Shown here in pieces: positions 34,758 to 53,306 of a stretch of 64,000 bases of DNA. Positions within the stretch are counted from its first letter, which is position 1. Every line of letters begins with the position of its first letter. The translations under genes and the position numbers were made by a program. The DNA comes from Escherichia coli (GTDB lineage Bacteria; Pseudomonadota; Gammaproteobacteria; Enterobacterales; Enterobacteriaceae): NCBI RefSeq assembly GCF_003334305.1, contig NZ_QOWS01000011.1. One strand, 5' to 3'. The notes beneath the pieces were generated by a model, which did no database searches, was not told where the DNA came from, and saw nothing but the letters and a program-made list of their open reading frames with translations.

Positions 34758-34774
34758 TTGGCTCCTCTGACTGG
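34758..34774. repeat. 17-bp att core at the tRNA-Asn 3' end (single copy)
   Basis: ttggctcctctgactgg overlaps the tRNA 3' end; no second copy found by eye between 3300 and 4320. Confidence 0.6.
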
Positions 34775-34834
34775 ACTCGAACCAGTGACATACGGATTAA
34801 CAGTCCGCCGTTCTACCGACTGAACTACAGAGGA
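34759..34834 (-). tRNA. asnT: tRNA-Asn (GUU)
   Basis: 76-nt minus-strand sequence reads TCCTCTGTAGTTCAGTCGGTAGAACGGCGGACTGTTAATCCGTATGTCACTGGTTCGAGTCCAGTCAGAGGAGCCA; the copy next to mtfA is asnT in K-12. Confidence 0.9.
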
Positions 34835-35825: not shown

Positions 35826-35915
35826 GGAGAGATGCCGGAGCGGCTGAACGGACCGGTCTCGAAAACCGGAGTAGGGGCAACTCTACCGGGGGTTCAAATC
35901 CCCCTCTCTCCGCCA
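35826..35915 (+). tRNA. serU: tRNA-Ser
   Basis: 90-nt sequence GGAGAGATGCCGGAGCGGCTGAACGGACCGGTCTCGAAAACCGGAGTAGGGGCAACTCTACCGGGGGTTCAAATCCCCCTCTCTCCGCCA with long variable arm. Confidence 0.9.
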
Positions 35916-44793: not shown

Positions 44794-44884
44794 AAAAAAA
44801 AGCCGGCATCATGCCGGCCCAAAAAATATAAACAAGACGATAAAAGGCTAATAACGGAGGCATCATGACACAGAATAATAAAAA
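44794..44884 (-). ncRNA. rseX: Small RNA in the yedS-yedR spacer, probably RseX; ends approximate
   Basis: Minus-strand hairpin GCCGGC-AUGAU-GCCGGC followed by U8 with no CDS upstream; TACAAT-like -10 box (44896-44891) about 90 nt upstream; contains an anti-Shine-Dalgarno stretch (CAUGAUGCCUCC). RseX maps to this spacer in K-12 (from memory). Confidence 0.5.
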
Positions 44885-46215: not shown

Positions 46216-47634
46216 ATGCAGGAAAATATATCAGTAACCGATTCATACAGCACCGGGAATGCCGTTCAGGCAATGCTGGAGAAACTGCTGCAAATTTATG
46301 ATGTTAAAACGCTGGTGGCGCAGCTTAATGGTGTGGGTGAGAATCACTGGAGCGCGGCAATTTTAAAACGTGCACTGGCGAATGACTCGGCATGGCACCG
46401 TTTAAGTGAGAAAGAGTTCGCCCATCTGCAAACGTTGTTACCCAAACCACCGGCACATCATCCGCATTATGCGTTTCGCTTTATCGATCTATTTGCCGGA
46501 ATTGGCGGCATCCGTCGCGGTTTTGAATCGATTGGTGGACAGTGCGTGTTTACCAGCGAATGGAACAAACATGCGGTACGCACTTATAAAGCCAATCATT
46601 ATTGCGACCCGGCGACGCATCATTTTAATGAAGATATCCGCGACATCACCCTCAGCCATCAAGAAGGCGTGAGTGATGAGGCGGCGGCGGAACATATTCG
46701 TCAACACATTCCTGAACACGATGTATTACTGGCCGGTTTTCCTTGTCAGCCATTTTCGCTGGCTGGCGTATCGAAAAAGAACTCGCTCGGGCGGGCGCAC
46801 GGTTTTGCCTGCGATACCCAGGGCACGCTGTTCTTTGATGTGGTGCGCATTATCGACGCGCGTCGTCCGGCGATGTTTGTGCTCGAAAACGTCAAAAACC
46901 TGAAAAGTCACGACCAGGGTAAAACGTTCCGCATCATCATGCAGACGCTGGACGAACTGGGCTATGACGTGGCTGATGCAGAAGATAACGGGCCGGACGA
47001 TCCGAAAATCATCGATGGCAAACATTTCCTGCCGCAGCACCGTGAACGCATCGTGCTGGTGGGTTTTCGTCGCGATCTGAATCTGAAAGCCGATTTTACC
47101 CTGCGTGATATCAGTGAATGTTTCCCTGCGCAGCGAGTGACGCTGGCCCAGCTGCTGGACCCGATGGTCGAGGCGAAATATATCCTGACGCCGGTGCTGT
47201 GGAAGTACCTCTATCGTTATGCGAAAAAACATCAGGCGCGCGGTAATGGCTTCGGTTATGGAATGGTTTATCCGAACAATCCGCAAAGCGTCACGCGTAC
47301 GCTGTCTGCGCGTTATTACAAAGATGGCGCGGAAATTTTAATCGATCGCGGCTGGGATATGGCCACGGGTGAAAAAGACTTTGACGATCCGCTGAATCAG
47401 CAACATCGTCCACGTCGGTTAACGCCTCGGGAATGCGCGCGCTTAATGGGTTTTGAAGCGCCGGGAGAAGCGAAATTCCGCATTCCGGTTTCGGACACTC
47501 AGGCTTATCGCCAGTTCGGTAACTCGGTGGTCGTGCCGGTCTTTGCCGCGGTGGCAAAACTGCTTGAGCCAAAAATCAAACAGGCGGTGGCGTTGCGTCA
47601 GCAAGAGGCACAACATGGTCGACGTTCACGATAA
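46216..47634 (+). CDS. dcm: DNA cytosine-5 methyltransferase
   Basis: 472-aa ORF with FAGIGG (SAM binding), GFPCQPFS (catalytic Cys) and ENV motifs. Confidence 0.95.
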
Positions 47635-48085
47635 GGCCACCCGCAGCAAAAATATGCGCGCGATTGCCACGCGTGATACGGCGATTGAGAAGCGCCTCGC
47701 CAGTTTGTTAACTGGGCAGGGCCTTGCGTTTCGCGTTCAGGACGCCAGTCTGCCCGGACGCCCGGATTTTGCCGTTGATGAATATCGCTGCGTGATATTT
47801 ACCCATGGCTGCTTCTGGCATCATCATCACTGCTATCTGTTTAAAGTGCCTGCGACTCGAACCGAGTTCTGGCTGGAGAAGATAGGTAAAAATGTTGAGC
47901 GCGATCGCCGCGATATCAGTCGCTTGCAGGAACTCGGCTGGCGCGTATTGATTGTCTGGGAGTGCGCGTTACGTGGGCGCGAGAAGCTGACGGATGAAGC
48001 GCTTACCGAGCGTCTGGAAGAGTGGATCTGCGGCGAAGGTGCCAGCGCGCAGATCGACACGCAGGGGATACATTTACTCGCTTGA
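47615..48085 (+). CDS. vsr: Very-short-patch repair endonuclease
   Basis: 156 aa from the ATG at 47615, overlapping the dcm 3' end by 20 nt in another frame. Confidence 0.9.
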
Positions 48086-48994
48086 TGCGTCCTGAATAAC
48101 TGGCGCAACTACGGGTTTTGCCGGAAAGAGATATTTTCCCAACGTGACCAGTACCACCGCGAAGACAATTACGCCGAGCGCCAGCCATTCAATCTTCGAC
48201 AACGTCTCTCCGCCCAGTCCCGTACCCAGCAAGACCGCGACCACCGGGTTAACGTAAGCGTAGCTGGTGGCGAGAGCCGGACTGACATTACGGATTAAAT
48301 ACATATAAGCGTTGATGGCGATAATCGAACCAAACAGCGCCAGATAGCCGACCGCAAGGAAGCCTGAAAGGGAAGGAAGCGCCGTCAGTTTTTCACCCGC
48401 AATCATCGACGCGATCATTAACACCACGCCTGCCGCCAGCATCTCAATCGCACCCGCCATCATCCCTACAGGTAAGGTAATGCGCGAGCCATAAACTGAG
48501 CCAAACGCCCAGCTAATCGAGCCGATTAAAATCAGAATCGCGCCCCATGGATTGCCGCTTAAGTTTCCACCGCTATTGAGCATGATGATTCCGGCAAGCC
48601 CAATGGCGATACCCACCCATTCCAGTTTGCGCGTTTTAATGCCAAACAGGCGGCTGAAGCACAGGGTAAAAAGGGGCACGGTTGCAACCACTACGGCGGC
48701 GATGCCGGAAGGAACATTTTGATGTTCGGCAACCGTCACCATGCCATTACCGACAGCCAGCAATAACAGGCCAATCAGCGCGGCATTGAGCAGCGGACGT
48801 GGCGGGGGAAGTTTGTGTCCGCGCAGTAGCAAAAATGCCAGCAATAAAATACCGGCTGCCAGGAATCGAACGCCCGCCATCATTAACGGAGGCCAGCTTT
48901 CCACGCCAATCCGAATGACAAAATAGGTTGAGCCCCAAATGATATACAACGCAAACAGCGCGCCAAAAAGCGGTAACAACTGGCGGAAACGCAT
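48074..48994 (-). CDS. yedA: EamA-family (DMT) transporter
   Basis: 306-aa polytopic ORF. Confidence 0.85.
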   Translation of the reverse strand: MRFRQLLPLFGALFALYIIWGSTYFVIRIGVESWPPLMMAGVRFLAAGILLLAFLLLRGHKLPPPRPLLNAALIGLLLLAVGNGMVTVAEHQNVPSGIAAVVVATVPLFTLCFSRLFGIKTRKLEWVGIAIGLAGIIMLNSGGNLSGNPWGAILILIGSISWAFGSVYGSRITLPVGMMAGAIEMLAAGVVLMIASMIAGEKLTALPSLSGFLAVGYLALFGSIIAINAYMYLIRNVSPALATSYAYVNPVVAVLLGTGLGGETLSKIEWLALGVIVFAVVLVTLGKYLFPAKPVVAPVIQDASSE

Positions 48995-53219: not shown

Positions 53220-53306
53220 AACACATCAGATTTCCTGGTGTAACGAATTTTTTAAGTGCTTCTTGCTTAAGCAAGTTTCATCCCGACCCCCTCAGGGTCG
53301 GGATTT
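53220..53306 (+). ncRNA. dsrA: DsrA small regulatory RNA
   Basis: AACACATCAGATTTCCTGGTGTAACGAATTTTTTAAGTGCTTCTTGCTTAAGCAAGTTTCATCCCGACCCCCTCAGGGTCGGGATTT matches DsrA as I remember it; three stem-loops with a terminal hairpin plus T-run on the plus strand and no plus-strand CDS upstream. Confidence 0.85.

Follow-up and report, generated by a model that had tools for sequence, protein, structure and literature searches.

The window, a 64,000-nucleotide stretch of Escherichia coli DNA, contains a dcm-vsr gene pair in which vsr starts inside the 3′ end of dcm. We put at roughly 0.85 the probability that this is an ordinary E. coli dcm-vsr pair in which Vsr is made from the ATG at 47615 and not from the TTG at 47453, both genes share one transcript and translation of vsr is coupled to that of dcm. 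The overlap itself is already known: it is the textbook arrangement of E. coli K-12, found here in a minority allele, and every defining feature that can be read from DNA is present.

The dcm and vsr genes and their overlap

The genes and overlaps at this junction are as follows.

46216..47634, + strand: dcm, DNA-cytosine (C5) methyltransferase, 472 aa, stop codon TAA at 47632-47634; annotated by RefSeq on identical DNA
47615..48085, + strand: vsr, very-short-patch repair T:G mismatch endonuclease, 156 aa, ATG start; annotated by RefSeq
47615..47634, + strand: dcm/vsr overlap, ATGGTCGACGTTCACGATAA, 20 nt, with vsr in the +1 frame relative to dcm
48074..48085: convergent overlap of the vsr and yedA 3′ ends, 12 nt (yedA at 48074..48994 on the − strand); also present in the RefSeq annotation (vsr 3016..3486 and yedA 3475..4395 in locus L001) and in K-12

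The first-pass annotation had placed the vsr start within the last 20 nt of dcm in a different frame, and had described the products as a methyltransferase and the endonuclease that repairs the mismatches it causes. The placement agrees with the coordinates, with RefSeq on identical DNA and with K-12 MG1655, and the two identities are borne out by matches to the profiles NF007772 and TIGR00632 and to Vsr structures. In profile searches, Dcm scored 951.1 bits against NF007772 (‘DNA cytosine methylase’; cutoff 710) and 350.9 bits against TIGR00675 (cutoff 100.65). The C5-methyltransferase motifs that were checked, namely I (FxGxG), IV (PCQ, with the catalytic Cys), VI (ENV), VIII (QxRxR) and X (GNS/AV), are all intact (DLFAGIGG at residue 91, GFPCQPFS at 174, ENVKNL at 224, QHRERI at 274 and GNSV at 435). 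Dcm methylates the inner cytosine of CCWGG, and the match of 470 of 472 residues to the K-12 protein predicts the same CCWGG specificity for the Dcm of the window. Vsr scored 180.1 bits against TIGR00632 (‘DNA mismatch endonuclease Vsr’; cutoff 97.85), with model positions 1-119 falling on residues 1-118, and among solved structures it matches the E. coli Vsr chains 1cw0, 1vsr and 1odg; residues 2-155 of the 1cw0 chain correspond to Vsr residues 3-156 with V53A as the single difference. The catalytic, zinc-binding and intercalating residues of the E. coli enzyme all occupy their expected positions, and D51, T63, H64, C66, F67, W68, H69, H71, C73 and C117 were each found. We take the full list for 1cw0 to be D51, T63, H64 and H69 as catalytic, C66, H71, C73 and C117 as zinc-binding, and M14, I17, F67 and W68 as intercalating residues. 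Vsr nicks DNA 5′ of the T in T:G mismatches that arise by deamination of 5-methylcytosine and so starts very-short-patch repair; from its 98.7% identity to the characterised K-12 protein, the Vsr of the window would be expected to nick 5′ of the T in a T:G pair within CTWGG/CCWGG.

Since (47615-46216) mod 3 = 1, the two genes are read in different frames. On the vsr side the overlap takes in codons 1-6 and the first 2 nt of codon 7, and on the dcm side the final 2 nt of codon 467, codons 468-472 and the stop. The dcm stop codon follows the vsr start by 17 nt. Both the dcm stop position and the vsr start are retained in 16 of 16 orthologous overlapping junctions, drawn from five genera and one unassigned metagenome genome, and given this retention the overlap exceeds chance. 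Vsr codons 6-7 (GAT-AAG or AAT-AAG) contain the dcm TAA, and Vsr thereby sets its position. Variation within the overlap is found at vsr third positions, besides two A/G exchanges at vsr first positions and a T at 47619 in the window. The Dcm tail that the overlap encodes differs among orthologues (HGRRSR, HGGRSR, DGGRSR, NDGCAQ, HGGCSR and HGGRTR), as expected if this tail were a by-product dictated by vsr codons.

Comparison with K-12 and other E. coli

The first-pass annotation had proposed the K-12 annotation as a check on the overlap. In K-12 MG1655, vsr occupies 2030448-2030918 and dcm 2030899-2032317, which gives the identical 20-nt out-of-frame overlap. The K-12 pair (b1961-b1960) is like that of the window also in having yedJ upstream, yedA convergent downstream, products of 472 and 156 aa and the same frame relation. 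The two alleles differ at 28 of 1419 nt in dcm and at 10 of 471 nt in vsr, and at the protein level by A17V and K149Q in Dcm and by A2V and V53A in Vsr. The A2V change is due to the T at 47619 (C in K-12). This T is within the overlap and leaves the dcm product unchanged; its position is the sole variable one in the overlap that is third in a dcm codon and second in a vsr codon, and among the 16 orthologous junctions the T occurs only in the window. Many RefSeq E. coli chromosomes matched a 2.1-kb query spanning the junction at 100% identity, and the query was found in 5368 of 5426 complete genomes; identity of at least 99% over the 2.1 kb was seen in 51 of the 5368 matching records, and by this measure the window carries the dcm-vsr allele of a minority E. 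coli lineage. The remaining 58 of the 5426 complete genomes gave no match to the dcm-vsr region, and two matching places were on plasmids.

The wider surroundings fit a K-12-like chromosomal neighbourhood, with the following RNA genes detected by Rfam/ARAGORN.

53220-53306, + strand: DsrA sRNA
44795-44884, − strand: RseX sRNA
34759-34834, − strand: tRNA-Asn(GTT)
35826-35915, + strand: tRNA-Ser(CGA)

The junction in other Enterobacterales

Species-representative genomes were scanned with a degenerate pattern, which returned 37 loci. We excluded five of these from the junction analysis: three were unrelated short open reading frames matching the pattern TTYTGGCAYCAYCAYCAYTGYTA (L008, L014 and L018), and two were loci that end at the motif (L015 and L022). 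The three unrelated matches are open stretches of 25-27 codons in Schleiferiaceae, Bacteroidetes and Desulfobacula and are not Vsr, and L008 and L014 encode a near-identical peptide. On the retrieved loci, Dcm, Vsr, YedJ and YedA were mapped by tblastn and the junctions were inspected. The order yedJ-dcm-vsr followed by convergent yedA, with a 20-nt overlap ending in TAA, was found in Escherichia, Salmonella, Citrobacter, Klebsiella and Enterobacter. In Raoultella and one Enterobacter the overlap is probably 17 nt, with the likely start (GTG or ATG) one codon later. Among the species-representative genomes retrieved, the overlap is restricted to these six genera.

Unlike E. coli, Shimwellia, Cedecea, Buttiauxella, Mixta and Pantoea have dcm and vsr as neighbours without overlap. 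The proteins of the non-overlapping pairs are orthologous, with identities of 65-73% for Dcm and 64-81% for Vsr, and most of these pairs also lie in the yedJ...yedA neighbourhood. In Shimwellia a TGA, which aligns approximately with CAG 47599-47601, stops dcm some 13 nt before the GTG start of vsr. The dcm frame beyond this TGA is open to the TAA inside vsr, so that a single stop codon separates the overlapping from the non-overlapping state. The gap between the genes is 10 nt in Cedecea, 35 nt in Buttiauxella sp. B2 and about 200 nt in Mixta, and in the other Buttiauxella (L016, L026 and L031) dcm and vsr are about 1 kb apart. In one of the latter (L016, 3366-3884), the opposite strand between dcm and vsr contains an ORF of 172 aa, the N-terminus of which resembles a signal peptide (MKLYKALFIPALLLSGIFNSNAGA...). 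In Pantoea septica and P. latae (L010 and L038), dcm is on the opposite strand, and it and vsr diverge from a gap of about 230-260 nt; the Shine-Dalgarno sequence of vsr is strong in both (AAAGGAGG/AAAGGAGA). In the NCBI taxonomy, Mixta and Winslowiella belong to the Erwiniaceae, and Shimwellia, Cedecea and Buttiauxella to the Enterobacteriaceae; Pantoea we take to belong to the Erwiniaceae. Judged by these non-overlapping, separated and even divergent arrangements, a dcm-vsr pair can do without the overlap, which looks like a derived, clade-restricted state.

Two loci carry a damaged dcm next to an intact vsr and an intact 20-nt junction. In Klebsiella indica (L020, about 9036-9651) a dcm remnant with 51 aligned residues is left, and in Escherichia sp. 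MOD1-EC7003 (L037, about 2588-3623) dcm has an internal deletion of about residues 38-306. Because dcm is reduced to remnants, vsr would have no working partner methylase at either locus.

Ribosome-binding site, transcription and probable coupling

The sequence upstream of the vsr ATG contains one further feature.

47603..47608, + strand: Shine-Dalgarno-like AAGAGG, inside dcm codons; GAGG with a 6-nt spacer to ATG 47615

The duplex of this element with the 3′ end of 16S rRNA has a predicted energy of -5.8 kcal/mol. Across the loci, the median energy for vsr was likewise -5.8 kcal/mol where the genes overlap (n=19) versus -8.45 kcal/mol where they do not (n=14), a difference (Mann-Whitney p = 0.015, uncorrected for phylogeny) in which the two ranges overlap and which is confounded by phylogeny and by the position of the element inside dcm coding sequence. 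In some Citrobacter and Escherichia of the overlapping clade the energy is only -3.0 to -3.6 kcal/mol. A consensus scan, which is weak evidence on this point, gave no sigma-70-like promoter match inside dcm or before vsr. At the other end of the pair, no intergenic room is left for a terminator between vsr and yedA because their 3′ ends overlap by 12 nt, and a consensus scan found no terminator-like site at 48074-48085.

Efficient translation of vsr is said to require translation of dcm, as Dar and Bhagwat reportedly found in 1993. Our full-text literature searches for translational coupling of vsr and for an 18 kDa product returned no match. Published work assigns dcm and vsr to one operon (PMC4924334, PMC12907096). 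One paper further states, crediting Dar & Bhagwat 1993, that vsr activity is lost as well in dcm-6, which has a nonsense mutation at codon 45 (PMC4444293); this loss could be due to transcriptional polarity instead of translational coupling. The first-pass annotation had called the arrangement coupled. From the literature and from two indirect observations that agree with coupling, the weaker Shine-Dalgarno duplexes of overlapping genomes and the lack of a promoter match inside dcm, co-transcription and translational coupling of dcm and vsr are most likely. We propose that one transcript, starting upstream of dcm, would carry both genes, and that ribosomes finishing dcm would cross the weak vsr ribosome-binding site (AAGAGG, 47603-47608) and terminate just past it. 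Initiation at vsr would thereby be enabled, either by local re-initiation or by the site being kept unfolded. If ribosomes arriving from dcm enable vsr initiation in this way, Vsr synthesis would therefore be tied to, and remain below, Dcm synthesis.

The main rival holds that Vsr initiates independently at its own Shine-Dalgarno sequence and ATG, and that the overlap, having no function in coupling, is a neutral consequence of the chance position of the next stop in the dcm frame. The GAGG 6 nt upstream of ATG 47615 is what such a reading would call for, and three of the comparative observations agree with it: the Dcm tail varies freely, as if dictated by vsr codons, one stop codon separates the overlapping from the Shimwellia state, and non-overlapping and divergent arrangements occur. 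Against it, the Shine-Dalgarno sequence is weaker in the overlapping clade, reaching the low values given above, vsr activity is lost in dcm-6 and the overlap is stable across six genera. On this evidence we prefer the reading in which ribosomes coming from dcm bring about coupling, and we regard purely independent initiation as unlikely. Some independent initiation at vsr is nevertheless plausible, given a recognisable GAGG that is well spaced from ATG 47615.

A different basis for coupling would be a hairpin (at about 47584-47644) that hides the vsr Shine-Dalgarno sequence, the AUG and the dcm stop and yields only to ribosomes that translate dcm. In the minimum-free-energy fold of 47555-47675, GGCGGUGGC (47584-47592) does pair with GCCACCCGC(C) and all three elements are enclosed, and alignment columns 35/84 show G-C, C-G and U-A variants. 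However, the stability of this fold does not stand out from that of shuffled sequence (z = -1.16), and 33 of 200 shuffles equalled it. In 18 orthologues no measure of covariation rose above shuffles: 74.7% of the cells were paired versus 74.6%, the score was reached by 72 of 500 shuffles, and the RNAalifold covariation term was +0.23 kcal/mol. Conservation of the stem arms can be explained without structure, because both arms consist of conserved codons. The hairpin thus has no support beyond chance, and as an explanation of coupling we keep it at low confidence, as distinctly improbable.

The vsr start codon and the 210-aa reading frame

The frame of vsr is open well upstream of its ATG, as the following features show.

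47453..47614, + strand: extension of the vsr frame, 54 codons, the 3′ part of dcm read out of frame; produces a mechanical ORF of 210 aa
47444..47446, + strand: TAA closing the vsr frame upstream, formed from the dcm codons TTA-ATG in the conserved ...ARLMGF... segment

The frame is thus open from 47447, that is, for 56 codons upstream of ATG 47615, and the mechanical ORF list contains a 210-aa ORF from TTG 47453 to 48085. The first-pass annotation had remarked that the six-frame track merges vsr into this longer ORF; the ORF list, recoding of dcm and stops in orthologues bear out that the merger is an artefact. Vsr is translated from ATG 47615, and the 210-aa ORF is a chance product of six-frame translation. 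When dcm was recoded synonymously with the window's own codon usage, 32% of the recodings kept the vsr frame open over all 56 codons, so the ORF is not beyond chance. Similarly, about one third of the +1-frame codons in the long ORFs of the window fall in open runs of at least 56 codons. A profile search with the 54 extension residues (47453-47614) found no protein family match, and the match of the 210-aa translation to 1cw0, 1vsr and 1odg begins only at residue 57, leaving the extension unmatched. Three upstream starts were considered, TTG 47453 and the in-frame candidates at 47543 and 47564; no Shine-Dalgarno element precedes any of them, they are not conserved and the frame has stops in relatives, and all three were rejected.

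Orthologues retain the start context M-x-D-V-H, but anything from 0 to 71 codons of open frame precede it. Stops in the vsr frame occur in 7 of 16 orthologues, and in six of these they lie between the TTG equivalent and the ATG (E. albertii, Salmonella arizonae, Salmonella diarizonae, Enterobacter soli and two Escherichia lineages); the equivalent of TTG 47453 is TCG in a Klebsiella genome. We also determined the fraction of non-consensus nucleotides at each codon position in 16 ungapped orthologous junctions, in which dcm positions 1/2/3 correspond to vsr positions 3/1/2.

Upstream 56 codons: dcm positions 1/2/3 = 0.10/0.08/0.34
Overlap: dcm positions 1/2/3 = 0.17/0.04/0.01
Downstream, vsr only: dcm positions 1/2/3 = 0.34/0.02/0.02

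Upstream of the ATG the variation is dcm wobble, which falls on vsr second positions (53 of the 56 vsr-frame second-position columns in the extension vary); the overlap is dominated by the vsr frame, and downstream the variation is vsr wobble. ATG 47615 marks the exact point at which the codon position that varies is no longer that of dcm but that of vsr. The first-pass annotation had named use of the upstream start, 47453, as the observation that would speak against its reading; such use is contradicted by the in-frame stops in orthologues, the loss of the TTG and this substitution pattern.

A 210-aa protein made from TTG 47453, or from another upstream in-frame start, as a real or alternative Vsr product would draw on the 56 open codons in the window and on the frame being open in 9 of the 16 orthologous junctions as well. 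We consider such a product extremely improbable: in addition to the missing Shine-Dalgarno elements, the unmatched extension, the orthologue stops and the TCG in Klebsiella, substitutions cluster at vsr-frame second positions, close to a third of the recodings are open by chance, and RefSeq and the K-12 annotation both give a 156-aa protein.

A programmed +1 frameshift near the end of dcm, which would exploit the same open frame across the final 56 dcm codons to yield a Dcm-Vsr fusion protein, is hardly credible and was rejected, since the only X XXY YYZ heptamer, G GGT TTT at 47448-47454 (of the -1 slippery form in the dcm frame and most likely a chance occurrence), shifts -1 into the third frame and not into that of vsr, the comparative data contain no upstream dual-coding signal, and the vsr-frame stops directly before the ATG in Salmonella would confine any shift to the 20-nt overlap, which has no slippery motif.

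Discussion

The results serve mainly as a quality check: the 210-aa six-frame ORF should stay unannotated, and ATG 47615 is the true vsr start. They leave the known biology of Dcm and Vsr unchanged, and the comparative observations are minor additions to it. As a side-result, the comparison amounts to a small natural experiment on the evolution of overlapping gene ends and of translational coupling, its elements being the restriction of the overlap to one clade, a stop position set by vsr codons and a weaker ribosome-binding site where the genes overlap.

We tentatively suggest, while holding it doubtful, a history in which the overlap was derived in the group of Escherichia, Salmonella, Citrobacter, Klebsiella, Enterobacter and Raoultella. 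Loss of the original dcm stop, which Shimwellia would have retained as its TGA, would have extended dcm to the TAA in the conserved codons for Vsr D6-K7, the vsr ribosome-binding site would then have decayed, and synthesis of Vsr would have come to depend obligatorily on ribosomes translating dcm. If the overlap is derived and the dependence obligate, this arrangement would offer a possible lever for the reported growth-phase dependence of the Vsr level despite co-transcription with dcm.

Bacterial operons commonly contain short same-strand overlaps of the ATGA or TAATG type, at which termination and re-initiation couple the translation of neighbouring genes. The dcm-vsr junction resembles these in that the downstream start lies just upstream of the stop of the upstream gene, in another frame and probably on the same transcript. 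It differs in length: at 20 nt, the dcm-vsr overlap is longer than the usual overlaps of 1 or 4 nt.
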